From a virus (Duplodnaviria; Heunggongvirae; Uroviricota; Caudoviricetes), in IMG/VR virus record IMGVR_UViG_3300031994_000015, positions 1 through 30,275 of that record: 30,275 nucleotides of DNA. One strand, 5' to 3'. The notes beneath the pieces were generated by a model. That model had not been told where the DNA came from, made no database searches, and worked only from the letters and a program-made list of their open reading frames with translations. The position numbers and the translations under genes were made by a program. Shown here in pieces: positions 13,388 through 28,523 of the stretch; position 1 is the first letter of the stretch, and every line of letters begins with the position of its first letter.

Positions 13388-13581
13388 TAATTAAAACGGC
13401 ACATGGTAGACGTAGTGGAATCCATGCTAAAGAACATATAAAATATAAACCATTCGGGATTTATATTACTAGACCAGAAATTCCACCATTTGGTAGAGGT
13501 AAATATATGAAAGGAATTTATTATCTTAATTTTAGGTGGAAACTTAAGATATTTCAAATAATGTTTAATTTTAATAAATGA
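13384..13581 (+). CDS. small basic hypothetical protein
   Basis: 65-aa ORF, ATGA overlaps at both ends. Confidence 0.7.
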   Translation: MIIKTAHGRRSGIHAKEHIKYKPFGIYITRPEIPPFGRGKYMKGIYYLNFRWKLKIFQIMFNFNK

Positions 13582-14273
13582 ATAAGCCAATTAGAAATAT
13601 ACTTTGTTATTCTCATTATGATTTTGATAATATAATGAGAGATCACTGTTGGACAGATAAACTTCCTGAAGGGGTTTCTGCAATATCAATATGTTCTCCA
13701 AATGAGGGTGATCTAGCAGAACATTGGTTTAAGAAAGAGCATAAAGATGGATTAACTAGTTCAAGAGTATTTAATCTTGATATTGATGATTTAAGTCCAT
13801 TTTGGTTTGAAAATCATGAAAGTAAATGTTATGATGATGCTTTAGATTTATTTAATGATGGAAAAATTAAAGAGTCAAACAGATATTTCAACTATCTCTA
13901 TATATCTGGTCCAAACAGAGAATGGGTGGATATTGTACATGCTCTTGACTATGAAGAAGCATTTGACCTCGCAAAATGGATTGATTTTAGAATCAAACAT
14001 GATGAAACAATTTATATACACTGCGCAGTCGGGGCTTCAAGAAGTCAAGGTGTTGTAAGATATATTGTTGATACTTATAAATATGATTATGATATTAGAT
14101 TGAATCCAAACAATCCTAATAATACATATAATCCACATGTATTGATGATGTTGAAACGTGCATATATGAATAGTGATTTTTATTCTTGTATAACACGTGA
14201 TGATGAACATGATTATTTGAATTATACAGAACCAATGAAGTTTAATAAAGATATTAAAATCAATTTAGTATGA
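13578..14273 (+). CDS. protein-tyrosine/dual-specificity phosphatase-like protein
   Basis: IHCAVGASRS = HCX5R(S/T) P-loop. Confidence 0.85.
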   Translation: MNKPIRNILCYSHYDFDNIMRDHCWTDKLPEGVSAISICSPNEGDLAEHWFKKEHKDGLTSSRVFNLDIDDLSPFWFENHESKCYDDALDLFNDGKIKESNRYFNYLYISGPNREWVDIVHALDYEEAFDLAKWIDFRIKHDETIYIHCAVGASRSQGVVRYIVDTYKYDYDIRLNPNNPNNTYNPHVLMMLKRAYMNSDFYSCITRDDEHDYLNYTEPMKFNKDIKINLV

Positions 14274-14464
14274 CAGATATAAAAGCAATTGCAGAAGAAT
14301 TAGTTAATCTAACAGCACAAGAAGTAAATGAACTTGCTATGGTTATGAAACATGATATGGATATACCAGCAGTTCGTTATGAAGAACCCAAATATAGAGA
14401 TAATAAAAATCTTACACCAAAGCAATATGGTCAAATGAAAAATTATAAACACAATAAAAGATAA
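14270..14464 (+). CDS. ribosomal protein L7/L12 N-terminal (dimerisation) domain protein, lacking the C-terminal domain
   Basis: MTDIKAIAEELVNLTAQEVNELA resembles the Bacteroidetes bL12 N-terminus; followed by an unrelated basic tail. Confidence 0.8.
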   Translation: MTDIKAIAEELVNLTAQEVNELAMVMKHDMDIPAVRYEEPKYRDNKNLTPKQYGQMKNYKHNKR

Positions 14465-14468
14465 TAAT

Positions 14469-14621
14469 ATGACTAATAAAGAATTGATGATTGCCTATAA
14501 AGTTATTTCTAAAATGATGAAAGAAAATACAAGAGCAAGTTATAACAATTCATTTGTAACTGTAAAGAATTGTTTAGCTAATAAAATTTGTGAGCAATTA
14601 GAAGATGGCCAGCAATTTTAA
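14469..14621 (+). CDS. small hypothetical protein (50 aa, MTNKELMIAYKVISK...)
   Basis: Fills gap before terminator; below ORF-track cutoff. Confidence 0.6.
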   Translation: MTNKELMIAYKVISKMMKENTRASYNNSFVTVKNCLANKICEQLEDGQQF

Positions 14622-14666
14622 TAAGGAATAACTAATACGAAAATCCTAATTATATTAAAGTAGTCG

Positions 14667-14693
14667 AAAGAAGAGATTAATTTCTCTTCTTTT
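14667..14693 (+). terminator. intrinsic terminator
   Basis: AAAGAAGAGA-loop-TCTCTTCTTT hairpin. Confidence 0.7.
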
Positions 14694-14727
14694 GTTCTAT
14701 ATTATATTATAAATAAATATTTAGAAT

Positions 14728-15786
14728 ATGGAACAGAAAGATTATTTAATCATTTATCATAGAGAAGATAATGATGGTGTATTTTCTGCTGCTATTATAG
14801 AAGATTATATCATTAATTCTCTTGGTAAAAACCTCGAAGATTTAGTATTTTTAGGTGCAGATTATAATATGCTTAATGGTTTTATTAAGGATAGTTATAA
14901 TACTCCTGAGCAATTACATAAAGATTTTAAGCATATTGTCATGACTGACATTTCATTTAATGATACCAAGTTCATGAAGAAACTTTATAAAGAGTTTGGT
15001 TCTGATTTTATATGGATTGACCATCATGCACCTATAATTCAAGAATCTATTAAGATGAATTTTGATGAGATTCCTGGAGTACGTGATACACAACGTTCAG
15101 CTATTCTTAATGCTTGGAAATTTTTATATGATCCATTTGATGAAGCTTACAAAGAAAAGAAAGTACCTGAATTACTTCGAATTTTGTCAGGTTGGGATTC
15201 TTGGTCATATGAAAGAGAAGGTTACACTAATGATTATGTAAGAAATATTAATAAAGCTGTAACTATCAAGTATCATTTGTCATTAAGTGAAGCTCGTAAA
15301 ATTGTACATGATTTGGTTAATGTATATGTTAAGAATGAGCCTTCCGGTAATATGTCAGGAGTTTTTAAGGATGGACCACTTATTGAACAACTTCATGAAT
15401 ATGGAAAACAACTTAATGATTATGATGATATAACTAATAGAAGTATTATTGAAATATCAGGAGATAAATCTTGGGAATTAGTCATTCATGATAAAGATTT
15501 AGACGAGACAAAAGTTCGTAAGTGTTGTGCAATATTCCATCAAGGTGCTACCAATTCATTAATGTTCAAATCATTACGTAATACTGATATTAGAAATGGT
15601 ATAGTGTTTAAGCATAACCCAAGTGGTACATGGACAATATCATTATATAATATTAATGATGATGATTGGTTCCACTGTGGAGAATATTGTAAAGAAACTT
15701 ATGGTGGTGGAGGACATAAAGGAGCTGCTGGTTGTCAAGTTTCCGAATCACAATTTATTAAGATTCTTAAAGCTAAGAAGATATAA
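14728..15786 (+). CDS. DHH/DHHA1 family phosphoesterase
   Basis: YHREDNDG, TD, WIDHH, GGGGHKGAAG motifs. Confidence 0.9.
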   Translation: MEQKDYLIIYHREDNDGVFSAAIIEDYIINSLGKNLEDLVFLGADYNMLNGFIKDSYNTPEQLHKDFKHIVMTDISFNDTKFMKKLYKEFGSDFIWIDHHAPIIQESIKMNFDEIPGVRDTQRSAILNAWKFLYDPFDEAYKEKKVPELLRILSGWDSWSYEREGYTNDYVRNINKAVTIKYHLSLSEARKIVHDLVNVYVKNEPSGNMSGVFKDGPLIEQLHEYGKQLNDYDDITNRSIIEISGDKSWELVIHDKDLDETKVRKCCAIFHQGATNSLMFKSLRNTDIRNGIVFKHNPSGTWTISLYNINDDDWFHCGEYCKETYGGGGHKGAAGCQVSESQFIKILKAKKI

Positions 15787-15808
15787 GAATAATTAAAATA
15801 TGTTAAAT

Positions 15809-15836
15809 AAAGGTTGATTTCAAAGTCAACCTTTTT
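15809..15836 (+). terminator. intrinsic terminator
   Basis: AAAGGTTGATT-loop-AGTCAACCTTT plus T run. Confidence 0.75.
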
Positions 15837-16000
15837 CTATTTTAAATTGATTATCTAATCACAAAAATTTTAACAATTATTTACGAAATATTATTAAATT
15901 TTAATTAAATAATATATGGATTTAAAATCTATGTATTGAATATTTTTATATACTATCCTATTAAAATGATAGAATTTGACAAAAATATTAACGAATATGA

Positions 16001-18565
16001 ATGATTATAATTAAACGAGATGGTACTCCCCAAGAATATTCTTTCTTGAAAATCGCGGATGCCGTACATAAAGCGTTTGCTTCGGTAGACCAAGATGTTC
16101 CAGATAAGTTTCTTGAGCAAGTAAAAGATTCAGTAGAAAAGCTAATTATCAAGAACAATGGTAATGGTACAGGTATAGAAGAAATTCAAGATTGCATTCA
16201 AAATGAGCTTATTAAGCGTAATAAGTTTGAAGTTGTAGAATCATTTATTGCATATCGTAAAGAACGTGAACGTATTCGTTTGGAAAATACCGATTTGATT
16301 AAACAAATTGAAGAAAAGCTTTATGCAACAAATGTACAAAACCAAAATGCTAATTTAGATGAAGACTCTTTTGGTGGTCGTTTAGGAGAAACTTCAGGTG
16401 TTGTCGCTAAAGATAGAGCTCTTAAGAAGATGTCTAAAATTGGTCGTAAGAATCATGAAGGAAATATGGTTTATATCCATGACTTAGACCATTGGTTAGT
16501 AGGTGATCACAACTGCTTGTCATATCCATTTGATAGTAAACTTAAAGATGGTGTTGTTACAAGACAAACTGATGTTAGAACAGCCGGTTCAATTAATACT
16601 GCTATGCAACTTGTTGCTGTTAATTTCCAATTACAATCATTACAACAATTTGGTGGTGTTGCCGCTACACATATTGACTGGTCTATGGTACCTTACGTCC
16701 GTAAATCATATAGAAAACACTATATCTTTGATTGGATTAAGAAACAACCAGAATTTTCAGATCTTGATATTTTAGGTTTAACATATGAAGAGCTTAAACA
16801 CTGGGTTGAAAATATGATTACTAAGTTTTATTTAACTACAAAACTTAAGGATGAAGATTTTACATTTGCTAATAAGAATCTTGATAATCAATTACGTCAA
16901 GAATCATTATTAGATACAAAACAAGAAACATACCAAGCGGTTGAAGGTATGTATCATAATTTAAATACTCTTCAATCACGTTCAGGTAATCAACTTCCAT
17001 TTACTTCTATAAATTATGGTACTTGTACAGAATTAGAAGGACGTATGGTAACTAAAGCCCTTCTTGAAGTTTCTATAGAAGGACTTGGTAAACATGGTGT
17101 AACATCAATATTCCCTTGTGGAATTTTTCAAATTAAAAAAGGAGTTAATTTCAAACCAGGTGATCCGAACTATGATTTGAAGCGTCTTGCATTGAAATCA
17201 ACAACTATGCGTATTTATCCTAACTATGCTAATTGTGATTGGTCAAATCAAGTAAATTGGTTTAATGCTGATAGAAAACAAAAACAAGAATATATTGAGT
17301 CATTATCTGATCATGATTATGTACAATTGACAAGTGCTATTGAAGATGAACCAAAAATATGTTTTGATAAAGTTGGTTTATATGTTGATGATAGTAAACG
17401 AATTCGTGTAGATATGACAGAACGTCCTATTGAATATTTCTCTACAATGGGTTGTCGTACTGTAAATGGTCTTGATATTAATGCATTTGATAATTTCAAG
17501 AGAAACGTACAATGCATTATGGATGGTAGATATGATGATATAGATGATGTGTTCTCAAGTGTTATTAAAGATGGTCGTGGTAATATTTGTCCTACAACAA
17601 TTATTATGCCAACACTTGCAGCTATGACTCGTAAGAAACTTGAAAAGAAATGGGAAGATTCTGGTGCTGAATATGTTAAAGGACCTGAATATGAAGAAAT
17701 GATGTTCTCTGAATTTATGAAACTTCTCGACAAGAAGATTCATGAGGCTAAAGATATGTTACTTGAACGTTTCAATCATATTTGTTCACAATCACCAAAA
17801 TCTGCTCGTTATATGTATGAAAATCATACTATGGCTGGATATCATGAAGAAGAAGGAATTATTTCAGCTCTTAAGCATGGTACAATTGTTATTGGTCAAT
17901 TAGGTATGGCCGAAACTCTTCAACTTTTATTTGGTTATGATCATACTACAAATAAAGGAATGGAATATGCTAAGAAGATTGAACAATTATTCTTAGATAG
18001 AACCTCAGAATTCAAAAAAGAATATAAACTCAATTTTGGTGTTTATTATACTCCTGCTGAATCATTATGCCATACAGCTATGAAGAAATTCCGTAAAGCA
18101 TTCCCTCAATATTGTCTTGAAAATGTAACATATTACATTAAGAAAGATGGTGAAAAGAAAGAGAAAGAATATTTTACAAACTCTATTCATGTACCAGTTT
18201 ATTATGAATGTGATCCATTTAAGAAGATTGATATTGAAAGTCAATTGACAACTTATTCAAATGCCGGTTGTATTACTTATGTAGAGTTACCAAGTATATC
18301 ATTCAATAATATAGATGGTGTTGAAAAAATAGTTGATTATGCTATTGAACATGATATCCCTTATTTTGCATTGAATTTCCCTCTTAATAGATGTGCAAGA
18401 TGTGGTGAACCTATTTATGATTCTGATTTAGAAGAATGTCCAAAATGTGGTTGCAAGAAAATAATTAGATTAGGTCGTGTAACTGGTTATCTTTCTACAA
18501 CAGTTGAACATTTTAATAAAGGTAAACAAGATGAATTTTATGATAGAGTAAAACACATGAAATAA
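16001..18565 (+). CDS. nrdD: anaerobic (class III) ribonucleoside-triphosphate reductase
   Basis: N-terminal ATP cone (IIKRDG), YIHDLD, TMGCRT, YYTPAESL, C-terminal CxxC..CxxC and RVTGYL glycyl-radical motif. Confidence 0.96.
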   Translation: MIIIKRDGTPQEYSFLKIADAVHKAFASVDQDVPDKFLEQVKDSVEKLIIKNNGNGTGIEEIQDCIQNELIKRNKFEVVESFIAYRKERERIRLENTDLIKQIEEKLYATNVQNQNANLDEDSFGGRLGETSGVVAKDRALKKMSKIGRKNHEGNMVYIHDLDHWLVGDHNCLSYPFDSKLKDGVVTRQTDVRTAGSINTAMQLVAVNFQLQSLQQFGGVAATHIDWSMVPYVRKSYRKHYIFDWIKKQPEFSDLDILGLTYEELKHWVENMITKFYLTTKLKDEDFTFANKNLDNQLRQESLLDTKQETYQAVEGMYHNLNTLQSRSGNQLPFTSINYGTCTELEGRMVTKALLEVSIEGLGKHGVTSIFPCGIFQIKKGVNFKPGDPNYDLKRLALKSTTMRIYPNYANCDWSNQVNWFNADRKQKQEYIESLSDHDYVQLTSAIEDEPKICFDKVGLYVDDSKRIRVDMTERPIEYFSTMGCRTVNGLDINAFDNFKRNVQCIMDGRYDDIDDVFSSVIKDGRGNICPTTIIMPTLAAMTRKKLEKKWEDSGAEYVKGPEYEEMMFSEFMKLLDKKIHEAKDMLLERFNHICSQSPKSARYMYENHTMAGYHEEEGIISALKHGTIVIGQLGMAETLQLLFGYDHTTNKGMEYAKKIEQLFLDRTSEFKKEYKLNFGVYYTPAESLCHTAMKKFRKAFPQYCLENVTYYIKKDGEKKEKEYFTNSIHVPVYYECDPFKKIDIESQLTTYSNAGCITYVELPSISFNNIDGVEKIVDYAIEHDIPYFALNFPLNRCARCGEPIYDSDLEECPKCGCKKIIRLGRVTGYLSTTVEHFNKGKQDEFYDRVKHMK

Positions 18566-18583
18566 TTTATCTATTTTATATTT

Positions 18584-18865
18584 ATGAGTAGATCTATTGT
18601 TTCAAGAAGACATAAAAATGCTGTTATCATGAAATTATGGGGTGGAGACTCCGATAAAAAAGATAAACAAAAAGCAAATAGATCTTTTAGACGTCTATCT
18701 CGTATGGACGCTAAAAGATCTACTTTATTAGAAGAAGATGCATTTAAGTATTATGATATGAAAGAAATATCAGATACATGGTCATTTAGATCTGATGGTT
18801 TATCTCATTACTGGGATATATCGAATTATGATAAAGAAGAATTTAATAGGTTAAAAAGCAAATGA
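18584..18865 (+). CDS. basic hypothetical protein
   Basis: 93-aa Arg/Lys-rich ORF. Confidence 0.75.
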   Translation: MSRSIVSRRHKNAVIMKLWGGDSDKKDKQKANRSFRRLSRMDAKRSTLLEEDAFKYYDMKEISDTWSFRSDGLSHYWDISNYDKEEFNRLKSK

Positions 18866-19014
18866 TAGTATATAATAAGAAAACAAATAAACTTGAAGCT
18901 TCCGGTCCTGGAGGATATAATGGTTTACCATTTGATAATGGTTGCGGAGGTATAGTTATTTGTTTTATTTTACTAATTTTAATGTTGATAGGAATAAAAT
19001 ATAATTTAATTTAG
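18862..19014 (+). CDS. small membrane protein (50 aa)
   Basis: ATGA overlap with upstream gene; C-terminal hydrophobic helix; ends in TAG 1 nt before nrdG ATG. Confidence 0.6.
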   Translation: MIVYNKKTNKLEASGPGGYNGLPFDNGCGGIVICFILLILMLIGIKYNLI

Positions 19015-19015
19015 C

Positions 19016-19516
19016 ATGCTTAGAATAGTAGATATAACTGCACCAGATATAAATAATGGAAATGGATTAAGAGTAACTTTATGGGTTGCTGGATGTAATC
19101 ATAGATGTAAAGGATGTCATAATGCTTGGACATGGAAATATGAACAAGGTAGAGTTTTTTCTGAAGAGCAAAATAAGATATTTGAAGAACTATCAGAATG
19201 GTTAGATAGAGATTATATAGAAGGATTAACATTATCTGGTGGAGATCCGTTGGCTCAAGATAACGATGGTCTTTGTGAACTTTATTCAATCATTAAATGG
19301 TTTAAAGAAAAATACCCTACAAAAAATATTTGGCTTTATACTGGATATACTAAAGAAGAAATTGATAGTATGAATGATTATATCTTACATAAAATAGTTG
19401 ATTCTATCAATGTTTTAGTAGATGGTCCTTATATAGAAGAAAAAAGAGATATCGCCCATACTCCATTTAGAGGAAGTACTAATCAAAGGTTAATTTACAT
19501 AAATAATCAAAAATAA
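19016..19516 (+). CDS. nrdG: anaerobic ribonucleotide reductase activating protein (radical SAM)
   Basis: GCNHRCKGCHN CX3CX2C, LSGGDP, WLYTGY, DG.Y, FRGSTNQR. Confidence 0.96.
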   Translation: MLRIVDITAPDINNGNGLRVTLWVAGCNHRCKGCHNAWTWKYEQGRVFSEEQNKIFEELSEWLDRDYIEGLTLSGGDPLAQDNDGLCELYSIIKWFKEKYPTKNIWLYTGYTKEEIDSMNDYILHKIVDSINVLVDGPYIEEKRDIAHTPFRGSTNQRLIYINNQK

Positions 19517-19559
19517 TTTATTTTTAAATAGATAAATTGAATTATATTAAAAATATGTT

Positions 19560-20264
19560 ATGATTATTAAATCGAAAATTCCTATTTTTATAGTAGTAGA
19601 TACACATACACCAGAGATTAAGAAGTTGAATGTTGCATTATTACCTTATGCATTTTATTATGTAAAAATATTGCAAACTCTTGAAAGAGTTGTTATTATA
19701 GCAGAAGATGATGAGGTATTGGAATATGCGCAAAAATTAGGATTTAAGTATACTTATAAAACAAAGAACCAAAGTACTAAATATACTTTAAGATATACAG
19801 GTATATATAATCATATGATGGAATTTCCGACAGATTATGATTGGTTTATCGCTCTTAGATTAGACCAACCATTTAAATCTGAAAATCTTATTTTAGATGC
19901 TATTCGTGGAATAAAATGGGATTTGGATTTTATAGTATCTACTTCTAAAATGACTGATAGAGAAAGATTGTTTATTAATGAAGATAATAAATTTATACAA
20001 TTGATAAATAATTCTAATAGAAATTTTGAAGAATGTGTGGTTACTGATATGGTGGATCTTTCAGTACTTTGTATTAAAACTGAATTTTTTAAAAAGTGTG
20101 TAGAATCAAATGATTTCTATGGAACTCTTTGGACCGGTAAATTTGAAACAATTAAAAATGATTCAATGTTTATACAAATTTTAGGGCACCATCACACAGA
20201 AAGATTTGAGAAGGTACACGATATATTTATGGAGGTACAAAAACTCCCAAAATTTGGAGAATAA
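19560..20264 (+). CDS. divergent cytidylyltransferase-like (NeuA/KdsB fold) protein
   Basis: EDDEVLEYAQKLG and DWFIALRLDQPF..ENLILDAI resemble NeuA/KdsB segments; the N-terminal ARxxSK motif is absent. Confidence 0.45.
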   Translation: MIIKSKIPIFIVVDTHTPEIKKLNVALLPYAFYYVKILQTLERVVIIAEDDEVLEYAQKLGFKYTYKTKNQSTKYTLRYTGIYNHMMEFPTDYDWFIALRLDQPFKSENLILDAIRGIKWDLDFIVSTSKMTDRERLFINEDNKFIQLINNSNRNFEECVVTDMVDLSVLCIKTEFFKKCVESNDFYGTLWTGKFETIKNDSMFIQILGHHHTERFEKVHDIFMEVQKLPKFGE

Positions 20265-20285
20265 ATAATTTGATTATTATATCAT

Positions 20286-20317
20286 AAAGCCTTACATAAA
20301 TTTTATGTAAGGTTTTT
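20286..20317 (+). terminator. intrinsic terminator
   Basis: AAAGCCTTACATAA-loop-TTATGTAAGGTTTT hairpin. Confidence 0.75.
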
Positions 20318-20349
20318 CTATTTTAAAATTTAGATAAATTATATTAAAT

Positions 20350-21192
20350 ATGGAAAATATACATACAATTGTTATTCCGGATATACATGGCAGAAAATTC
20401 TGGAAAGATATATTAACAAAATATAATAAAGAAGATTACCAAAATTTACCAATTGTATTTTTGGGTGATTATGTTGACCCTTATGATTTTGAAGGAATTT
20501 CTAAAGAAGATGCCATAATTAATTTCCAAGAAATAATCGATGTGGCTAAAAATGATAATCGTATTCATTTGTTAATAGGTAATCATGATATGCATTATTG
20601 GTATGATGCCCAATATAAATGTAGAGTAGATACAAGAAATTATAATGAAATTAAAGATATGTTCTTGCAAAACTTTACTTTATTTAATGTGGCATATGAA
20701 GAAATAATTGATGGTGAAAAATTTCTTTATACTCATGCTGGTATGACTAAACAATGGTTAGACCATTTGCATCTTATTGGTAAAATATCTGTAGAAAATA
20801 ATAAGAAATTTAGAATTGATCACTTTGGTAATAAAGTAAAACAACTATCAGATGAACAATTACCATTTGCAAAGATGCTCAAATCAATGACACCTGATGC
20901 AGATAAATTAAACAAAATGAAAGATAATTTTCAAGGTCAAGCAAATCTTTGGATGGCATCATGGGCTCGTGGTGGAGAACATCAAATGGGTAGTTGTATT
21001 TGGGAAGATTTATCAGAATGGAAATTTGGCGGAACAGAAATTCCTGGTATTTGGCAAGTATTTGGCCATTCAAGATGGTCTAAACCTAATCCAGATGATG
21101 CTTATATAGATTTTGATAGAAAATTTGCATGTGTTGATACAGCTTCTGGATGGATTATTACAAATAACAAAGAATTTATTAAGATACAATAA
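20350..21192 (+). CDS. calcineurin-like metallophosphoesterase
   Basis: PDIHG, GDYVD, GNHD, THAG, FGHS motifs; paralogue of 5895..6653. Confidence 0.9.
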   Translation: MENIHTIVIPDIHGRKFWKDILTKYNKEDYQNLPIVFLGDYVDPYDFEGISKEDAIINFQEIIDVAKNDNRIHLLIGNHDMHYWYDAQYKCRVDTRNYNEIKDMFLQNFTLFNVAYEEIIDGEKFLYTHAGMTKQWLDHLHLIGKISVENNKKFRIDHFGNKVKQLSDEQLPFAKMLKSMTPDADKLNKMKDNFQGQANLWMASWARGGEHQMGSCIWEDLSEWKFGGTEIPGIWQVFGHSRWSKPNPDDAYIDFDRKFACVDTASGWIITNNKEFIKIQ

Positions 21193-21221
21193 TTAACAGA
21201 TTTTAACACTATTATATACAG

Positions 21222-21305
21222 AGAGCACACAGGTTAATTTAATTCAATATGATAATAAGATATTGATAATCTAAAAATAAATTAACCTGTGTGCTTTTAT
21301 TTTTT
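21222..21305 (+). terminator. long hairpin followed by T tract
   Basis: 20-bp inverted repeat 21222-21241/21278-21297 with an inner 7-bp stem. Confidence 0.65.
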
Positions 21306-21327
21306 TCTAAATTTTTTTATATAATAT

Positions 21328-21365
21328 TTGAAAAATTTTGATTTGTTTCTATATTATATATGTAA
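21328..21365 (+). promoter_or_regulatory. repeated phage promoter motif
   Basis: TTGAAA-N14-TCTATATT-N5-TGTAA. Confidence 0.75.
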
Positions 21366-21383
21366 AACAAATAAATATCAAAT

Positions 21384-21623
21384 ATGGTTAAGAATTTTTA
21401 TTACCGTTTCATTTTGGTTCTCACAATTGTTTTTGGAACTCTTTTTATTGGTAGCGTTCCTGAGATGATGAAGACTTCAAACTGGGTCACACTTGCCTTT
21501 GTTTTTTTTGGTCTTTATTTTCTTACTTACAAGGAGTTTGGCAAACTTTCCAATGAGCGTCGTAATGAAATCCTTTACTTGGATTTTTTCAAGAAGATTG
21601 GATGTGATTTTTCAAAGGAGTAA
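21384..21623 (+). CDS. small membrane protein (2 TM)
   Basis: Two hydrophobic segments. Confidence 0.75.
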   Translation: MVKNFYYRFILVLTIVFGTLFIGSVPEMMKTSNWVTLAFVFFGLYFLTYKEFGKLSNERRNEILYLDFFKKIGCDFSKE

Positions 21624-21646
21624 TTAACTTAATCATATAAATATCT

Positions 21647-21847
21647 ATGACTTACAATCCTAATAAAGTTTACATTGTTTTTGATGGTACCTCACATTAT
21701 GGAGTATGGGGATGTGATGTAGAGATGGAAATTGCATCCAATGATGTAGAGGTAGTTAAAGGTCCTTATTCCGATTGGGATGATTTTGTAGAAGACGAGA
21801 TTACAAAACTCAATGATGAGGCTTATGGAACCCACATGTATAGATAA
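21647..21847 (+). CDS. hypothetical protein
   Basis: 66-aa acidic ORF. Confidence 0.75.
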   Translation: MTYNPNKVYIVFDGTSHYGVWGCDVEMEIASNDVEVVKGPYSDWDDFVEDEITKLNDEAYGTHMYR

Positions 21848-21879
21848 TATAAAGTAAAATTATAATAAAGTAATAATAT

Positions 21880-22218
21880 ATGAATACAAAGAACAATCTT
21901 CGAGTTAGACTTTTCCACCCAGGAACAATTGGTTTTGAATTTTATTGTGCATTGTTCAGAACTTCTAAGGATTCTGATGGTCATGTAAGAATGTATTGCA
22001 ATTTCGATTGGGAGAAAGAAGATGGTCAAGGAGATTATGATCGTGAATTTGGTGCACCAGATGCAGTTAGGATGTTCCTTTTTCAGGTTAGAATGAACAA
22101 TGATGATGTTGAAAAGAGATTTAATTTTGATAAGCCTTATATTAAGGCCGGTCAGTTCTCTAAGAATGGTGTTTATATTGATAATATTGAAACTCTAAAT
22201 ATTGAAGTTACAAATTAA
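21880..22218 (+). CDS. hypothetical protein
   Basis: 112-aa ORF. Confidence 0.8.
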   Translation: MNTKNNLRVRLFHPGTIGFEFYCALFRTSKDSDGHVRMYCNFDWEKEDGQGDYDREFGAPDAVRMFLFQVRMNNDDVEKRFNFDKPYIKAGQFSKNGVYIDNIETLNIEVTN

Positions 22219-22219
22219 T

Positions 22220-22420
22220 ATGAAAAAGTGCGTAATTAGAAATTCTGGTGAAGGAAATAATAAGATTTATAAGGAATTGACTGATGAGCAATTTAATTTT
22301 CTTGATAGTCTTTTTGATGAAATCAATAATTCTCCATATGGTGAATGCTATGCACCTTATATAAGTATTTGGGAAGCAGAAAGTGATGAACTTAAAATGT
22401 TTGAGAACAATGACAATTAA
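22220..22420 (+). CDS. hypothetical protein
   Basis: ATG at 22220 follows upstream stop. Confidence 0.7.
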   Translation: MKKCVIRNSGEGNNKIYKELTDEQFNFLDSLFDEINNSPYGECYAPYISIWEAESDELKMFENNDN

Positions 22421-22799
22421 GCAAGCAATTTTGAATGAGAAGGAGTATAATAACATAACTCCTCGTATACTCCCAAGTGTAGAATTTCGCGCACCAGTTA
22501 GAAATTATAAAGAGTTTTATACTCAAGAGCAAATTGATTATCTTTGGGATCATGGAATGCTTGAGGAATATCAAAAGTGTGGTGCCACATGGGAACGTCC
22601 TTGGATGGGTGAGTATTGGGAGTTCACCGATAAAGGCAAACGTTGGAGAATCTGGTATACAACTGACTTATGGACTTTGATTAAGATTTATGTTCTTCGA
22701 GTATATTGGTTCAAATACAAGTGGCAGAAACTATGTATAAAGTTTGGTCATCATTATGATTGGCAAGATTATGAAGGAGTAAGTCTTGATGAAATTTAA
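22410..22799 (+). CDS. hypothetical protein
   Basis: Trp-rich ORF; ATG at 22410 preferred. Confidence 0.75.
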   Translation: MTIKQAILNEKEYNNITPRILPSVEFRAPVRNYKEFYTQEQIDYLWDHGMLEEYQKCGATWERPWMGEYWEFTDKGKRWRIWYTTDLWTLIKIYVLRVYWFKYKWQKLCIKFGHHYDWQDYEGVSLDEI

Positions 22800-22829
22800 T
22801 CATAATAGAGAAAATGATTAGCATTAAAT

Positions 22830-22946
22830 ATGAAGAAAATAAAGAATTGGTTTAAGAAGCTATTTGTTAAAGATATTACACAAAAGAATATTAATGATGA
22901 TATTCCTGATATCGATTTCGGAGAAGTATTTAAAATGAAATTTTAA
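22830..22946 (+). CDS. small hypothetical protein (38 aa, MKKIKNWFKKLF...)
   Basis: Fills gap; amphipathic N-terminus. Confidence 0.5.
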   Translation: MKKIKNWFKKLFVKDITQKNINDDIPDIDFGEVFKMKF

Positions 22947-22958
22947 TTTAATAATACA

Positions 22959-22996
22959 TTGAATTTTTTTAATAATATTCTATATTTATAATGTAA
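22959..22996 (+). promoter_or_regulatory. repeated phage promoter motif
   Basis: TTGAAT-N14-TCTATATT-N5-TGTAA. Confidence 0.7.
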
Positions 22997-23011
22997 CAAA
23001 ATTCAATTTAT

Positions 23012-23341
23012 ATGGAATACAAAAATATTAAAAAATTCAAGAATAACGAAAATGTTATATTAGCTTGGAAAGATGATGAAAATAAATTCTGGCCATATAA
23101 TGTAATAGTTATCAAGAATAACAATAAAGTTGAGTTTATAGACCCAGACGAAAGAACAAGTATTTCATATAAAGAATTTAAGCATACCAATGATGATGGA
23201 CTTTTTATGATGGTTTTTGATTCTGTTTCAGAATGCCAAGATTGGTGTGATAGACAGAATCTAAATGATTCTGAATATTTAGAAATAGATGGTTCTGATT
23301 CTAGGACAGGAGAAATGTGGAATAATATTTTTAATTTTTAA
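23012..23341 (+). CDS. hypothetical protein
   Basis: 109-aa ORF; resembles ORF 535..858 at the C-terminus. Confidence 0.8.
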   Translation: MEYKNIKKFKNNENVILAWKDDENKFWPYNVIVIKNNNKVEFIDPDERTSISYKEFKHTNDDGLFMMVFDSVSECQDWCDRQNLNDSEYLEIDGSDSRTGEMWNNIFNF

Positions 23342-23347
23342 TATAAT

Positions 23348-24049
23348 ATGTATAGAGAAAGTTTAAACATGATGGAGGCCTCAATTAAGGCTCGTATTAG
23401 TGAAAATATTAAAAAGTATGGTAAGAATTTTCCATGGAAGGCTTGGTTGCCTTCAAATGTAGAGAAAATCGAAAATGATGCTGAAGTAAAATATTATTGC
23501 AAAGGTGATCCGAAGACAGTATTCTCCGGTCGTTTCTGTGCGGTATCAGGTTTTATTTATGCAATTGTGAATGGCAAGTATTCTATTCTTGCTAATCTTC
23601 GTGGCCCTGGTACTCCTGATTATCAAGGATGTTGGAATGCTCCTTGTGGATTCCTTGAGTGTTTTGAAGATTCAAAGGAAGGTATTCAGCGAGAGATCTA
23701 TGAGGAGTGCAAGTTTATCGTTCGTAAGGAAGATTTAAAGGTTGTTCATGTTGAGACCAATCCAGCTGAATGTAATAATGGTAATGTGACAATTCGTCAT
23801 AAAGCATTCCTCGGTAAGATTGTTCCTATGTATCTTAAGTCTTCTGAAGGTGGAGAAGAGAATGAGGTAGATGGAATTAAGTGGATTCCTGTTGAGGAGT
23901 TTGATAATTATAAGTGGGCATTCAACCATGCTAAGACCACTAAGCTTTATGCACCAGGTAAGATTAAGCGCTGGTTAATTGAGTTCTGGTATAACAATTT
24001 CGGTAGTTATAACAAGAATTATACAGATGACATGTATATAAATGATTGA
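23348..24049 (+). CDS. Nudix hydrolase
   Basis: WNAPCGFLECFEDSKEGIQREIYEEC Nudix box; WAFNH as in ADP-ribose pyrophosphatase-like enzymes. Confidence 0.88.
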   Translation: MYRESLNMMEASIKARISENIKKYGKNFPWKAWLPSNVEKIENDAEVKYYCKGDPKTVFSGRFCAVSGFIYAIVNGKYSILANLRGPGTPDYQGCWNAPCGFLECFEDSKEGIQREIYEECKFIVRKEDLKVVHVETNPAECNNGNVTIRHKAFLGKIVPMYLKSSEGGEENEVDGIKWIPVEEFDNYKWAFNHAKTTKLYAPGKIKRWLIEFWYNNFGSYNKNYTDDMYIND

Positions 24050-24330
24050 TTATGGAAAGTACAAAAGGAGTTATTAGAGTAACTAAGTTGGCTGAACATT
24101 ATAATGGATATGATGAAATCTATTATTTTACTGATGTAGCAATTGATGTGGATTCTCATCTTATGGCTCGAATTTCAGGTAATGTTTTTGATGCCATGAA
24201 ATTTATTTGGAATACCCCAAATGAAGATGAACAGATGAGAATTAATTCATTGATAAATTTTGTTAAAACTTGTTTTAAGCCTTCAAAGAAATTTAAAATT
24301 GAATTTGTACCTTTGACAATTATTTATTAA
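24046..24330 (+). CDS. hypothetical protein
   Basis: 94-aa ORF. Confidence 0.75.
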   Translation: MIMESTKGVIRVTKLAEHYNGYDEIYYFTDVAIDVDSHLMARISGNVFDAMKFIWNTPNEDEQMRINSLINFVKTCFKPSKKFKIEFVPLTIIY

Positions 24331-24419
24331 ATATATAATCAAATGAATGTTACGATTGATAGATAATATTTTCGAATTTATTGGTTGTTTTATTTGGAAT
24401 ATAAGATATAGAATATTAC

Positions 24420-24722
24420 ATGAGTAAAACATATAATGACAAATATGATTTTCAGAAAATCATTGAGAATGAAGAGACAAATTATTGGGATGCCCATTTG
24501 TTAGCAACTCGGCATCCTAATAAAAGAAAACGTGCATCTTTGAATCGTGAATTTCATAAAGTTAACTTAGGATCTCCTGCTAAATGGAAAAATAGATATG
24601 GTGAAGTTTATGATAAATCATCACGTATGCATTTAGCAGCTTCAGAAATTGCTATGAAACGTAGAAGGAGATTAAATCATGATGCACAAGACGAAATTAA
24701 TAGAGAACTAAATAATATGTAA
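24420..24722 (+). CDS. basic hypothetical protein
   Basis: 100-aa ORF. Confidence 0.75.
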   Translation: MSKTYNDKYDFQKIIENEETNYWDAHLLATRHPNKRKRASLNREFHKVNLGSPAKWKNRYGEVYDKSSRMHLAASEIAMKRRRRLNHDAQDEINRELNNM

Positions 24723-24724
24723 AT

Positions 24725-24988
24725 ATGAGTCAATTGTCAATTAATTTTGCTTATAAGTCAGGAACTAATGGATATTGGAATTTAGATGGTTGTGATAAGA
24801 TAATTAAGTCTTTTAAAAAGAAAGATTATTCTTATCCGATTCCATCTGAACATAGTATAATTAAATTAAATGTAAATGATAAATGGAATCATTATTTAGT
24901 TACAGATGTTAATTATATTTATGGTGATGATAATGATGAGAAATGTGATAATGTTTATGTATATATATACTTAATATATCTACCATAA
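24725..24988 (+). CDS. hypothetical protein
   Basis: 87-aa ORF. Confidence 0.75.
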   Translation: MSQLSINFAYKSGTNGYWNLDGCDKIIKSFKKKDYSYPIPSEHSIIKLNVNDKWNHYLVTDVNYIYGDDNDEKCDNVYVYIYLIYLP

Positions 24989-24989
24989 T

Positions 24990-25343
24990 ATGAATAAGGT
25001 TTTTAAATTAGTATATAAGTCAGGTCCTCATGGTGATGAATGTTCATCTTATGAGGTGAAATTCTTTGGTCAACAAACATTACAAGATTTATTGAATGCA
25101 CTTGATGAACGTGAATGGGGTTTGGTAAAAGTTAGAATTCCTAATCCAGAAACATTTAATCTTCCTTATGCAACTGAAAGGGAGAAATATATGGATCTCA
25201 CAATTGAATATAAACATGGAAAAATAATTACACCAAGGGAGAAATATGCTTATTTATTGGATAAAGTAATTGACAATAATTATAGTAATTTTGCTAATGG
25301 TGGGTGGAGTCTCATGAATTATTGGATAAAAGTAAATATTTAA
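24990..25343 (+). CDS. hypothetical protein
   Basis: 117-aa ORF. Confidence 0.8.
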   Translation: MNKVFKLVYKSGPHGDECSSYEVKFFGQQTLQDLLNALDEREWGLVKVRIPNPETFNLPYATEREKYMDLTIEYKHGKIITPREKYAYLLDKVIDNNYSNFANGGWSLMNYWIKVNI

Positions 25344-25345
25344 TT

Positions 25346-25570
25346 ATGAAAAAAATTATATTTATAATTTTATTGTTTATATTTATAGGTTGTAATAATA
25401 CTAATTTAGATCCTAATTTAGTATATAGTGGTCATGACTGGGTTGTTAAAAAACTTAACGATACTGTAGTAATTTGTATTCCTACACAAGGTGATTTACT
25501 TGGGCGTCAACCAAATAAACCGTATGCAATTAATATTAAAGATTTTTCACAATCAGAATTTAGAAAATAA
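25346..25570 (+). CDS. putative lipoprotein
   Basis: MKKIIFIILLFIFIG-C signal peptide II pattern from ATG 25346. Confidence 0.7.
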   Translation: MKKIIFIILLFIFIGCNNTNLDPNLVYSGHDWVVKKLNDTVVICIPTQGDLLGRQPNKPYAINIKDFSQSEFRK

Positions 25571-25571
25571 T

Positions 25572-25799
25572 ATGAAATTATTTAAGAAAATTGTAACATT
25601 AGAACCTATTGATATTAATGAACTTGATAATGTTCTTATAAAAATAGCTGTACCAATTATAGAACGAAACAGAAACAATAATTGGGAAGATGACAACTTC
25701 GATGATATTCTAAACGCTTTTGAAGAAGAATATAAGTTAGAAGATGAAGAAAATGATTTTTTGTATAATAAAATTCGTAAACTAATTAAAACAATATAA
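25572..25799 (+). CDS. hypothetical protein
   Basis: ATG at 25572 follows upstream stop. Confidence 0.7.
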   Translation: MKLFKKIVTLEPIDINELDNVLIKIAVPIIERNRNNNWEDDNFDDILNAFEEEYKLEDEENDFLYNKIRKLIKTI

Positions 25800-25800
25800 T

Positions 25801-25941
25801 ATGAAAGCTAAAGATGCTGCTAAACTATTAACCACCCTTAGTGAGATTTATCCTGATTTAGATATTACATTTGCTAACAATAAGGTTCCAGTAAATGTAG
25901 TTCAATATGATGCAAAAAGTAATTCAATAAATATTAGATAA
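25801..25941 (+). CDS. small hypothetical protein (46 aa, MKAKDAAKLL...)
   Basis: Exactly fills the gap, with 1-nt spacers on both sides. Confidence 0.7.
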   Translation: MKAKDAAKLLTTLSEIYPDLDITFANNKVPVNVVQYDAKSNSINIR

Positions 25942-25942
25942 T

Positions 25943-26212
25943 ATGTTACCACTTGATGAATTATTTCATTTGAATAGCCGATTGACTAAAGATAGGCAAT
26001 TCTCAAAATGGCAATGGAAAGAGATTATCGATTTAGCTTTTACAGCTGGAAGAGATATGTGTTTTAATTGGGGTGTTGAACATTTTTATGTAGGTCTATT
26101 AGGTTTTGATTATGAAGATTGTGAAGATTTGGTAACAGATATTCAAAATGGTGACGGTAAAGCCATAGATAGATTTGTAATGGATATTGTAAACTATTTT
26201 AATAGCAAATAA
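25943..26212 (+). CDS. hypothetical protein
   Basis: 89-aa ORF. Confidence 0.75.
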   Translation: MLPLDELFHLNSRLTKDRQFSKWQWKEIIDLAFTAGRDMCFNWGVEHFYVGLLGFDYEDCEDLVTDIQNGDGKAIDRFVMDIVNYFNSK

Positions 26213-26214
26213 TA

Positions 26215-26856
26215 ATGAGTAGAGCAATTTTTCTCGGTAGTTTTAATCCTCCACATAAAGGACATGTTGATTGTATTCAGAGTGTTGTTGACTCTGGTAT
26301 AATGAAAGAATTGAATATTGATAAGATTCATGTAATACCTTGTTGGCAAAACCCAAACAAGAATAAATTTACTGTACCATTTATTAAGCGTTATCAAATG
26401 GTATGGTATATGTTTGGTGATTTGATTCGTGATGGTATTGTTTGTCCTGATGATATTGAAAATCATATTTACCCAAATTATACTTGTACATTGATTGATT
26501 ACTTTAATACTGGTAGAGATGCTTATATCAATAAGAATTTTGAAGGTTTTTGGTGGATTATAACTATTGAGACTATAAAAGAACTTATGGAACAGAAGTG
26601 GAAATGTTCTAAAGAGCTTTTATATGATAATAACTTTATTGTTGTTGGCAAAGATGAAGAAGAATGGAATAATTTACTTAATCAGTTTGTAGATTATAAA
26701 TCAATAATTTGTGCTAAATTTGTAAAATTAAATAGTACACATGATTTTCATTCAACCAAACTTCGTGAAAAAATAAAGAATGGTGAATCTATTGAAGATG
26801 AAACTTGTTTTTGGGTAAATGATTATATTAAAGAAATGAATTTATATAAAGAATAA
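26215..26856 (+). CDS. nadD: nicotinate/nicotinamide-nucleotide adenylyltransferase (NadD-like)
   Basis: GSFNPPHKGH (HxGH), P..QNP.K, YT, STKLRE motifs. Confidence 0.8.
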   Translation: MSRAIFLGSFNPPHKGHVDCIQSVVDSGIMKELNIDKIHVIPCWQNPNKNKFTVPFIKRYQMVWYMFGDLIRDGIVCPDDIENHIYPNYTCTLIDYFNTGRDAYINKNFEGFWWIITIETIKELMEQKWKCSKELLYDNNFIVVGKDEEEWNNLLNQFVDYKSIICAKFVKLNSTHDFHSTKLREKIKNGESIEDETCFWVNDYIKEMNLYKE

Positions 26857-26857
26857 T

Positions 26858-27391
26858 ATGGCTTGGTATTGTTGGATATATCTTTTTGTTATTTTAACAT
26901 TTTTTGGTTATCTTTATAATCGAATTATTTTTTGGATCGGTGCATTTATTTGGGAATGGTCATCAAATGTTATTTATGGTGATGGGTATTGGTTTGATGA
27001 AGGCACTACAATTAAATCTATAATAGAGGATATTAGATATAAAGATGGAGTGTTTCATACTTCATATTATCCAGAAGAAAATGATAGTTATGTTACAGTT
27101 TCACAAGTAAGATGGATAGCAGGAATCAATATATTAACTGCTTCAGTAGTATTTGTATTTAATATTATTGGTTTTTTAGTTGCATTAGCATGTATCTTTG
27201 GTAGATTTATAGGATTAATTATATGGGGTCAATGGATTTGTATAGGTCAATATATTTATAAATTTATAAAAATATGTATTAAATATATTGTATCATTCTT
27301 GGTAAAGATTAAAGTTGTTTCATTTTTAGTATCATTATATAAAGTTACAATAAACATTCGTGATAAAATACTTAATTTTGAAATTGCGTGA
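26858..27391 (+). CDS. membrane protein
   Basis: Multiple hydrophobic segments. Confidence 0.75.
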   Translation: MAWYCWIYLFVILTFFGYLYNRIIFWIGAFIWEWSSNVIYGDGYWFDEGTTIKSIIEDIRYKDGVFHTSYYPEENDSYVTVSQVRWIAGINILTASVVFVFNIIGFLVALACIFGRFIGLIIWGQWICIGQYIYKFIKICIKYIVSFLVKIKVVSFLVSLYKVTINIRDKILNFEIA

Positions 27392-27597
27392 TTATGGAAA
27401 ATATTTGGGGAATTTCTTATTTAGTTGCTGGATTTATTGTTGCAATATGGATTTGGTGTAAAGATTACAAACATGATTATAAATTGGCTAAAAGTCAAAA
27501 TGATGTTGAAGATGGAATGGCTGTTATCTTTATGATAATGTTATTTTTATTTTGGCCATTATTTTTAGTACATAAATTATTTAAAAAGATTTTTTAA
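27388..27597 (+). CDS. small membrane protein (2 TM)
   Basis: Two hydrophobic segments, FWP motif. Confidence 0.75.
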   Translation: MIMENIWGISYLVAGFIVAIWIWCKDYKHDYKLAKSQNDVEDGMAVIFMIMLFLFWPLFLVHKLFKKIF

Positions 27598-27630
27598 CTT
27601 TCTATATTTAATTATATTATTATTACATAT

Positions 27631-27702
27631 ATGAAGAATTACAATAACATATCAAGACGAAGAAACCGTAATATAACTATTATGGGTGATATGGAAGTGT
27701 AA
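27631..27702 (+). CDS. Arg-rich leader peptide MKNYNNISRRRNRNITIMGDMEV
   Basis: 23-aa ORF with AGA CGA AGA AAC CGT; preceded by TCTATATT promoter core at ~27601; followed by terminator. Confidence 0.7.
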   Translation: MKNYNNISRRRNRNITIMGDMEV

Positions 27703-27778
27703 AAAAGAAGCAAAACATAATTGATATAAATGTATGCTGGTAACATATCACTCAAGATATTTTACCAGTAATTTTTTT
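27683..27778 (+). promoter_or_regulatory. putative transcription attenuator (antiterminator/terminator)
   Basis: Terminator stem 27735-27749/27756-27770 plus T7 (27772-27778); mutually exclusive 11-bp helix TGGGTGATATG (27683-27693) with CATATCACTCA (27744-27754). Confidence 0.7.
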
Positions 27779-27798
27779 GAATTTTTTATAAGAGATCT

Positions 27799-27836
27799 TT
27801 GAAATATTTTAATTATTTTCTATATTATATTTGTAA
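27799..27836 (+). promoter_or_regulatory. repeated phage promoter motif
   Basis: TTGAAA-N14-TCTATATT-N5-TGTAA. Confidence 0.75.
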
Positions 27837-27850
27837 AATAAACATAAATT

Positions 27851-28126
27851 ATGGGAATAAATAGAAAAATCAAACGAGGAACTTTAGGTCACCGAGATGA
27901 TCCTTTGGTTATAGAATACCAGAATAAGTATAAGATTGGTAAAGGTCTTGTATTTGCCGCTTTAAGAGCTTTTGGTGATTCTAAATATACTCATGAGTTT
28001 TGTGAATTTATTGTTGAATGGCAAAAAACAAATAAAACTTCCGGTATCAGTTTTACCTATCTTGTAGAAGAGTTTGAAGGAACTGGTCATGGAGTAGTTA
28101 TTGAAAATAAATTGAATGCTGAATAA
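27851..28126 (+). CDS. hypothetical protein
   Basis: 91-aa ORF after promoter. Confidence 0.75.
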   Translation: MGINRKIKRGTLGHRDDPLVIEYQNKYKIGKGLVFAALRAFGDSKYTHEFCEFIVEWQKTNKTSGISFTYLVEEFEGTGHGVVIENKLNAE

Positions 28127-28170
28127 CGTTTTACTATATAATATTATGTTTTACCTTTGAATAGTAAAAT

Positions 28171-28242
28171 GCCCCGGTAGTTCAACGGATAGAACAGGAG
28201 TCTTCTAAACTTCTGATTTGGGTTCGATTCCCAACTGGGGTA
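28171..28242 (+). tRNA. tRNA-Arg(UCU)
   Basis: Cloverleaf; anticodon arm GGAGT-CT TCT AA-ACTTC; T loop TTCGATT; no encoded CCA. Confidence 0.9.
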
Positions 28243-28265
28243 CAATTTGATAAACTAACACATTT

Positions 28266-28339
28266 GGCCCAGTAGCTCAATGGATTAGAGCACTTGTCTA
28301 CGAAGCATGGGGTTGTAGGTTCGAGTCCTACCTGGGTCA
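28266..28339 (+). tRNA. tRNA-Arg(ACG)
   Basis: Cloverleaf; anticodon arm CTTGT-CT ACG AA-GCATG (one mismatch); T loop TTCGAGT. Confidence 0.85.
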
Positions 28340-28340
28340 C

Positions 28341-28520
28341 AAATAGTTGGGATGTAGGCTTGGAAGCAGCCATCATCTAAGGAACAAAAAGATATGATTA
28401 AAGTAAGTGGTTTAATAAACTCCGATGGTATGAATTTGGAAACGCGTCACCTTAATTGGGAACTGTCGGAAACGATTTTATCAATGAAATAACATTTGCG
28501 TAACAGCGCACCAACTATTT
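28341..28520 (+). ncRNA. 23S rRNA L11-binding domain (H43-H44, GTPase-associated centre) mimic with 112-nt insert
   Basis: GGATGTAGGCTTGGAAGCAGCCATCATCTAAGGAA...TGCGTAACAGCGCAC aligns to 23S nt ~1055-1104; closed by perfect 10-bp stem AAATAGTTGG/CCAACTATTT. Confidence 0.85.
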
Positions 28521-28523
28521 AAT

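Follow-up and report, generated by a model that had tools for sequence, protein, structure and literature searches.

Separate RNA and protein likenesses of the ribosomal stalk base encoded by a large phage of the ruminant gut

INTRODUCTION

The closest described counterparts of the elements reported here are the GTPase-associated center (GAC) of bacterial 23S rRNA, formed by helices 42 to 44 (H42-H44; Escherichia coli positions 1051 to 1108) and known as the 58-nucleotide (nt) domain bound by uL11 and thiostrepton, and the ribosomal stalk protein bL12, whose N-terminal domain sits on helix alpha-8 of uL10 (Thermotoga maritima structure 1ZAV; free forms 1DD3 and 1RQT). Here, we analyze positions 1 to 30,275 ("the window") of the IMG/VR virus record IMGVR_UViG_3300031994_000015, a member of the Caudoviricetes, which encodes likenesses of both. 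One is an RNA replica of the GAC that lies between two tRNA genes, and the other is a protein of 64 amino acids (aa), here called L12N, that retains the anchoring N-terminal domain of bL12 alone.

Phages carry a variety of translation genes, including those for tRNAs, IF-1, bS21, and bL12 C-terminal domains, and bL12 is the most readily exchanged of the ribosomal proteins. To our knowledge, copies of the stalk base itself lie outside this set. The bL12 genes described from viruses carry the bL12 domain that provides the contacts to uL11, EF-G, and EF-Tu, often inside larger proteins (Mizuno et al. 2019, PMC6375957). L12N shares with those genes its derivation from bL12, an easily exchanged protein, but retains the opposite half alone, the N-terminal domain, to which a new basic tail is joined; because the known viral forms carry the C-terminal half, its arrangement is the reverse of theirs. 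The N-domain-only bL12 family and the coincidence in one phage of two stalk-base copies, one of RNA and one of protein, are the main novelties reported here.

The window makes up the first 30 kb of the record, which is 158 kb long and has a G+C content of 29%. CheckV estimates the record to be 56% complete, and the phage genome is therefore probably about 280 kb in size. Because sheep, goat, and bovine gut metagenomes contain DNA nearly identical to that of the phage, and because the nearest cellular relatives of its bL12-like domain belong to Prevotella and other Bacteroidales, the host is likely to be a ruminant-gut member of the Bacteroidales, whether Prevotella or another.

A preliminary description of this DNA had proposed a multipart system directed at the stalk, composed of the RNA mimic, the bL12-like protein, an RNA resembling the sarcin-ricin loop (SRL), IF-1, and tRNA-like RNAs. 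The likenesses on the RNA side (H42-H44) and on the protein side (the bL12 N-domain) held up, as did IF-1 and the tRNA-like RNAs, whereas the SRL part and the linkage did not. We put somewhat better than even confidence in a reading in which the window contains separately acquired and separately inherited translation-directed modules, acting as proposed below, rather than a co-evolving system.

RESULTS AND DISCUSSION

An RNA resembling the GTPase-associated center.

28341 to 28520, + strand: GAC-mimic RNA, with closing stem 28341-28350/28511-28520, H43 side 28351-28383, insert 28384-28497, and H44 side 28498-28511
28266 to 28340, + strand: tRNA-Arg(ACG), tRNA gene prediction
28524 to 28596, + strand: tRNA-Arg(ACG), copy 2, tRNA gene prediction

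The GAC mimic occupies the space between the two tRNA-Arg(ACG) genes and is closed by a perfect stem of 10 bp. Its conserved segments, 28351 to 28383 and 28498 to 28511, align without gaps to E. coli 23S rRNA positions 1056 to 1088 and 1091 to 1104, and an insert of 114 nt starts directly after the equivalent of A1088. The nucleotides that we take to form the tertiary contacts of the GAC (U1060, A1088, G1071, C1072, and the pairs G1091-C1100 and C1092-G1099) are all present, and the 1082:1086 pair covaries among relatives as it does in rRNA. A blastn comparison of the 1.25-kb tRNA array with the Prevotella rRNA operon returned two matches only, both of them pieces of the GAC (24 nt, E value of 1e-5, and 11 nt). 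The mimic differs from the 23S domain in being free-standing, with its own closing helix instead of H42, tRNA genes as flanks, and no rRNA alongside; in the insert that separates A1088 from G1091; and at position 1101, where the rRNA has U, the mimic has G, and most of its family has A. The L11-domain RNA mimic recognized earlier in this interval is thus a stem-closed element with two 23S-aligned segments, and the same architecture recurs in 27 of 28 pattern matches from IMG/VR. From its sequence, it would be expected to adopt the GAC tertiary fold and to bind uL11.

A near relative of the mimic is L010, from a 435-kb contig. Between the two, compensatory changes replace a G-C pair with C-G in the closing stem and a U-A pair with C-G at 28429/28462, within a helix of the insert (28422-28429/28462-28469). 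The mimic carries A at the position equivalent to 1061 (28356 in the window) and G at 1067 (28362). We take U1061A to be a variant that stabilizes the tertiary fold of the 58-nt domain; G1067, which is also the state of Prevotella 23S rRNA, would presumably reduce thiostrepton binding. A direct copy of the GAC of the putative host, Prevotella, was considered and ruled out, the host GAC having an extra nucleotide near positions 1078 to 1083.

The element appears, from sequence and pairing, to be a member of a phage RNA family that lies outside Rfam 15; the family had no entry there and was not found in the searchable literature. A degenerate GAC pattern matched 28 contigs in IMG/VR, and because the pattern fixed most positions, constancy at most GAC positions is partly a product of the search. 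The mimic architecture was present in 27 of these contigs, which comprise 18 distinct elements besides that of the window; the remaining contig, L028, is genuine rRNA and was rejected. Each of the 18 elements has its own closing stem, an H43 segment, an insert of 84 to 313 nt, and an H44 segment with A or G at 1101. The closing stems vary in sequence with pairing kept, and family members adjoin tRNA genes. Of the family's elements, 13 have U:A at the tertiary pair 1082:1086, 5 have C:G, and 1 has C:A. The inserts of these pattern-selected elements are hypervariable in sequence as well as length, and the handle is constant. The window and L010 form a subtype, with an insert junction of AC...AUUU rather than GU...CUUUG and a U-G rather than a G-A pair before H44. 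In L024 (2049 to 2408, - strand), the 313-nt insert holds an exact SRL (UAGUACGAGAGGA) on a 7-bp stem. This is the only exact SRL among the 26 GAC-bearing records, and SRL-like strings in the GAC inserts (2 observed versus 0.34 in shuffled sequences) are barely above expectation.

Unannotated members were also found in cultured phages:

L216, Cronobacter phage GAP32, 289.5 kb, found by blastn
L217, Pseudomonas phage pf16, within its tRNA array, found by blastn
L219, Xanthomonas phage XacN1, beside a 2'-5' RNA ligase gene, found by blastn
L220, Aeromonas phage 4_4572, found by blastn

These members are more distant than the IMG/VR set and show compensatory changes in the H43 stem; since they were found by blastn, they are free of the pattern bias. 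Their presence in GAP32, pf16, and XacN1 opens the family to experiment. Paenibacillus phage Pd_22F and several short records labeled as phage also matched the GAC query and were set aside as real 23S rRNA.

L12N, a bL12-derived protein with the N-terminal domain alone.

14270 to 14464, + strand: L12N, 64 aa; bL12 N-terminal dimerization and uL10-docking domain (residues 1 to 33), linker, (S/T)P(K/R)xYG motif, and basic C-terminal helix, assigned by homology, profile, and AlphaFold2

Residues 1 to 32 of L12N are identical to Prevotella bL12 at 23 of 32 positions (72%; E value of 2e-13), and identity to host-type bL12 over the N-domain is 69 to 72%. Aligned with full-length bL12, the protein has a 16-residue linker and a tail in the place of the hinge and C-terminal domain. 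Neither an Ala/Gly-rich hinge nor the PF00542 C-terminal domain is present in L12N, which ends at residue 64 and has no other Pfam match beyond the N-domain family PF16320; because the hinge and C-terminal domain are absent, L12N is read as a member of a derived N-domain-only family and not as a bL12 orthologue. PF16320 is matched by 20 of 20 family members (best E value of 3e-7), the score of the window's protein being 17.1 bits, below the 25-bit cutoff. The AlphaFold2 model (pLDDT of 77.7) contains helices at residues 4 to 12, 16 to 29, 41 to 45, and 50 to 63, the last forming the tail. Residues 1 to 33 match, by profile and fold, the domain that sits on helix alpha-8 in 1ZAV and is seen free in 1DD3 and 1RQT; unlike those proteins, L12N is without the Ala-rich hinge and the C-terminal domain, and its docking on uL10 is a prediction.

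Conservation indicates a family rather than a truncated gene. There are 30 close homologues of 61 to 73 aa, and about 29 representative clusters (50% identity) cover the full length of L12N, keeping the N-domain and tail motif at 31 to 95% identity. The family shares an almost invariant N-domain and the (S/T)P(K/R)xYG motif, followed by a K/R-rich end. An alignment of 38 sequences (A3), with some members only about 32 to 48% identical to the protein of the window, has E9, L11, and V19 invariant and six further N-domain residues nearly so. The earlier identification of an N-terminal-domain-only bL12 protein at this locus is confirmed by these comparisons.

Structure-based searches gave less specific results. 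For the L12N model, VIA-align ranked the bL12 N-domains 1rqt first and 1dd3 third, at Z scores of only 2.8 and 2.7, tied with unrelated helices. Foldseek with the model and phmmer with the sequence returned no match in the PDB, and the L12N profile reached bL12 among PDB sequences at E values of only 0.4 to 2. A look-up of the tail in the ESM Atlas gave no usable lead. Complex prediction for residues 110 to 172 of Prevotella uL10 with two copies of L12N scored 0.09, which counts neither for nor against binding.

The gene is preceded by a reading frame whose stop overlaps its start:

13578 to 14273, + strand: open reading frame (ORF) of 231 aa; weak phosphatase-like signal (Pfam DSPc, E value of 2e-4, below cutoff) and a match to phrog_5614 (E value of 1e-11), of unknown function

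An ORF of 225 to 232 aa likewise precedes L12N in the close relatives L031, L039, L040, and L042 and is missing at the distant member L223. Searches of viral contigs found no L12N loci with a narrow alignment (A1) and six L12N-bearing records with the broader alignment A3. Scans of metagenomes and genomes were dominated by cellular bL12; the only phage-type matches were L128 and L129, which have no GAC RNA and no tRNAs within 10 kb.

Distribution of the GAC RNA and L12N.

The two elements were compared across genomes in both directions. Among 25 other GAC-bearing virus records, of which 4 are complete, neither the L12N profile nor PF16320 had a match (0/25 for each), and the L12N profile recovered its own genome at an E value of 7e-39 as a positive control; this set leaves out the records of L010 and L023. 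Conversely, the GAC motif was found in none of the six L12N-bearing IMG/VR records (0/6), four of which are 98 to 100% complete (112 to 376 kb), and three positive controls were detected. The most direct comparison comes from the relatives L040 and L041, in which L12N is followed 3 kb downstream by IF-1 and then by a tRNA array that matches the window's in its five Arg tRNAs, its "SRL-like" element, and its long tRNA-like RNA. Here, the two tRNA-Arg(ACG) genes are 21 nt apart, and the GAC RNA is absent between them. Given these three results, the GAC RNA and L12N are best read as independently distributed modules. The parts do not co-occur across genomes above expectation; the independent, patchy distribution is the outcome named beforehand as refuting a functionally linked multipart system, a proposal that is accordingly not upheld. 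What links the parts is coincidence in one lineage and perhaps shared timing, only.

IF-1 is present in 5 of the 26 GAC-bearing records, representing about three lineages, and in 4 of the 6 L12N-bearing records as well as in L040 to L042. Among these records, IF-1 is therefore found alongside L12N more frequently than alongside the GAC RNA. The L12N gene, IF-1, and the tRNA array (with additional genes for tRNA-Gln and tRNA-Leu) lie within 5 kb in L040 (10001 to 15030), L041, and L042, where IF-1 ends 25 nt before the first tRNA.

Within the window, the parts are separated by distance and by transcription unit. IF-1 (about 2.1 kb), L12N (14.3 kb), and the array (28.2 kb) lie in units 12 to 14 kb apart, each behind one copy of the motif TTCTATATTATAT; no two of them are adjacent or share a unit, in agreement with the earlier remark that the elements are not adjacent. 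The motif has 11 matches in the window versus 0.86 expected, 10 of the 11 on the + strand, at positions that include 1710, 5651, 13079, 14695, 21347, 27818, and 29672. It stands directly 5' of several gene clusters (for example, at 1710, 13079, 14695, 27818, and 29672) and is probably a phage promoter element.

27818 to 27830, + strand: promoter-like motif, 5' of the ORF at 27851-28126 and of the RNA array; the copies at 1710 and 13079 precede the operons of IF-1 and L12N, respectively
29602 to 29625, + strand: intrinsic-terminator-like hairpin that ends the array transcription unit, after the ORF at 29336-29602

Another terminator-like hairpin followed by a T-run is located at 27735 to 27778, after a short Arg-rich ORF and 5' of the array's promoter-like motif.

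Several observations weigh against the separation of the modules. Many of the records in both co-occurrence tests are fragments (5 to 78% complete), and the nearest GAC relative, the L010 contig, stood outside the forward comparison. The L12N clade is small, so that absent co-occurrence elsewhere leaves room for cooperation in this phage. The shared promoter-like motif would fit coexpression of the IF-1, L12N, and array operons, with eight other sites sharing the same motif. Finally, the argument for binding of uL11, uL10, or any factor by either element is drawn from likeness to ribosomal sequences.

Proposed action of the modules.

The GAC RNA would be transcribed within the tRNA-Arg array and cut out by RNase P and RNase Z acting at the flanking tRNAs. 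Since these tRNAs lie within 0 to 3 nt of it, a stem-closed particle of about 180 nt should be released. The particle would fold like H42-H44 and most likely serve as an off-ribosome decoy for host uL11 or for another reader of that domain; because the uL11-contact surface is kept, binding of this kind away from the ribosome is the simplest action that can be proposed. The variable insert may carry a lineage-specific function. L12N is predicted to form dimers, either homodimers or heterodimers with host bL12, and to dock on helix alpha-8 of uL10, given that its N-domain is nearly identical to that of the host protein. It would then set a basic helix on the stalk instead of the GTPase-recruiting C-terminal domain, and factor recruitment might be damped or redirected. 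Because bL12 exchanges readily on ribosomes, L12N could replace the factor-recruiting arms, and an N-domain-only bL12 with a new tail would be a simple route to re-equip or disable the stalk. IF-1 would supplement initiation. Since the GAC RNA and L12N do not form a system, each should be studied separately, and the GAC RNA needs no phage stalk protein. The L12N proposal offers a concrete, testable model of phage translation control in the Bacteroidales.

Several other explanations were weighed against these separately inherited modules. The GAC fold might be a mere stable, protein-protected handle for the variable insert as payload, unrelated to stalk function, with L12N acting independently as a dominant-negative stalk subunit for host shutoff. 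The hypervariability of the inserts (84 to 313 nt) beside a constant handle is what this idea would predict, and the tRNA-like RNA at 29047 to 29232 is likewise a known scaffold with an extra domain. However, a mere handle should require neither covariation of the 1082:1086 pair exactly as in rRNA nor a sequence so close to that of rRNA at exposed nucleotides of the factor contact such as A1095, positions that are partly fixed by the search pattern, and we consider the explanation unlikely. L12N might instead work off the ribosome, the bL12 N-domain having been co-opted solely as the dimerization module of a basic-helix nucleic-acid-binding protein. The family-specific part is indeed the conserved tail motif and basic helix, yet an N-domain that is 69 to 72% identical to host-type bL12, with three invariant and six nearly invariant residues among 38 sequences, appears to be under constraint beyond the needs of a generic dimerizer, which makes such a role quite unlikely. 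The two elements could also cooperate in this lineage alone, with the GAC RNA recruiting host uL11 and uL10 and L12N dimers filling the uL10 helix, forming an off-ribosome pseudo-stalk that would titrate stalk proteins or capture translational GTPases or RelA. Both parts copy neighboring pieces of one ribosomal site, both operons stand behind the same promoter-like motif, and the exact SRL inside the GAC insert of L024 shows this family to be capable of imitating further parts of the factor site. Co-occurrence in 0 of 25 and 0 of 6 records and the relative L040, which lacks the GAC RNA although L12N, IF-1, and the array are all present, speak against such cooperation. So does the closing stem, which is plain Watson-Crick and lacks the irregular lower H42 that we take to be used in uL10 binding, as does a search of the 158-kb record that found no genes for uL10, uL11, or an EF-Tu-type GTPase. 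We regard cooperation of this kind as very unlikely. Its fuller form, in which the GAC RNA, host uL11 and uL10, and L12N assemble into an off-ribosome pseudo-stalk with basic tails that sequesters stalk proteins or traps a translational GTPase, RelA, or a ribosome-directed defense toxin, is the least probable of the readings considered.

The remaining alternative concerns a second inter-tRNA RNA, which had been described as possibly SRL-like:

28913 to 29039, + strand: stem-closed inter-tRNA RNA ("SRL-like"), with a candidate bulged-G motif only and no GAGA loop

If this element were a genuine split SRL, a bulged-G module in which about 83 nt replace the tetraloop, two RNAs of the array would together supply both rRNA halves of the factor-binding site. 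A stem of 9 bp closes the element, which is conserved at about 92% in L040. Its likeness to the SRL (H95 of 23S rRNA) consists of the 5' string UAGUACGA and a possible AGUA/GAA arrangement: AGUA-CGAU (28925 to 28932) can pair with AUCG-GAA (29017 to 29023) in the SRL register, the minimum free energy (MFE) fold forms that 4-bp helix, and the flanks UUAGUAC...GGAAUA also border the exact SRL that L024 has in its insert. A bulged-G module is possible at this site on these grounds. Unlike the SRL, the element has no GAGA tetraloop, the part that contacts GTPases, and blastn found no significant match between it and the SRL region of the Prevotella host. A rival helix of 10 bp occupies the GGAAUACU stretch, the two available sequences show no covariation, and the fold is no better than that of shuffled sequence (z score of -0.09). 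The 8-mer common to the element and the SRL is no more frequent than expected by chance, the exact SRL string does not occur anywhere in the 158-kb record, and a scan of viral contigs for the SRL-like element had no matches; the rarity of SRL strings in GAC inserts (one exact copy in 26 records) also counts against a split SRL. We therefore do not retain the element as an SRL mimic and consider a split SRL highly improbable.

The tRNA-Arg array and its other RNAs.

Further members of the array are as follows:

28171 to 28243, + strand: tRNA-Arg(UCU), tRNA gene prediction
28600 to 28717, + strand: tRNA-like element inside a 7-bp outer stem; Rfam tRNA match of 28.9 bits at 28616-28689, just below cutoff; kept in L040
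28718 to 28834, + strand: structured segment of 117 nt, absent in relatives; missing in L040 and skipped by RNA-library contigs of three runs
28835 to 28910, + strand: tRNA-Arg(UCU), copy 2, tRNA gene prediction
29047 to 29232, + strand: tRNA-like RNA; in the MFE fold, a cloverleaf (acceptor, D, anticodon-like, and T arms) enlarged by a domain of about 105 nt; kept in L010 and L040
29234 to 29306, + strand: tRNA-Arg(CCU), tRNA gene prediction

The five tRNA-Arg genes (two UCU, two ACG, and one CCU; 28171 to 29306) are the only tRNA genes in the 158-kb record. Arginine codons in the phage ORFs are AGA (54%) and CGT (33%) for the most part, versus 15% AGA in a small Prevotella sample, and codon supply alone may be enough to explain the set. 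The tRNA-like RNAs noted in the preliminary description are upheld in outline by the match at 28616 to 28689 and by the cloverleaf at 29047 to 29232. The segment at 28718 to 28834 is an indel-like additional module of the array. At permissive thresholds, Rfam searches of the inter-tRNA elements returned tRNAs and nothing further.

IF-1 and tmRNA.

2122 to 2340, + strand: IF-1 homologue, 72 aa; Pfam PF01176, E value of 2.3e-25; downstream of the promoter-like motif at 1710

The IF-1 assignment made earlier is secure, with a score of 88.5 bits against the PF01176 (S1-like OB fold) cutoff of 30.2 bits. Al-Shayeb et al. reportedly described IF-1 and other translation genes in huge phages in 2020. 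The phage studied here is similar, being large and having IF-1, tRNAs, and a transfer-messenger RNA (tmRNA), and its IF-1 has nothing unusual in itself. The tmRNA is encoded at genome positions 35690 to 36080 (L208:5690-6080), 5.4 kb past the end of the window (Rfam RF00023, 80 bits), and ARAGORN predicts the tag peptide ANDELVDEAWLDSWEYRMAA.

Transcripts in sheep rumen.

Contigs over the region come from four sheep-rumen metatranscriptome runs; the depths are those of contigs, relatives contribute to them, and DNA carry-over is possible. A contig from run X6 links the 3' end of the GAC RNA to its 5' end (28513 to 28339, back 175), as could arise if the RNA is circular, if a relative has a tandem copy, or if the join is an artifact of assembly. 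RNA-library contigs match the L12N gene exactly in two runs. Summed contig depth in the bin that contains the array was 8 in one run and 34 to 48 in the other three, versus 0 to 12, mostly 1 to 10, in the surrounding bins. A contig from a relative joins a GAC RNA to the long tRNA-like RNA at a depth of 36. These contigs hint that the region, including L12N and the array, is transcribed.

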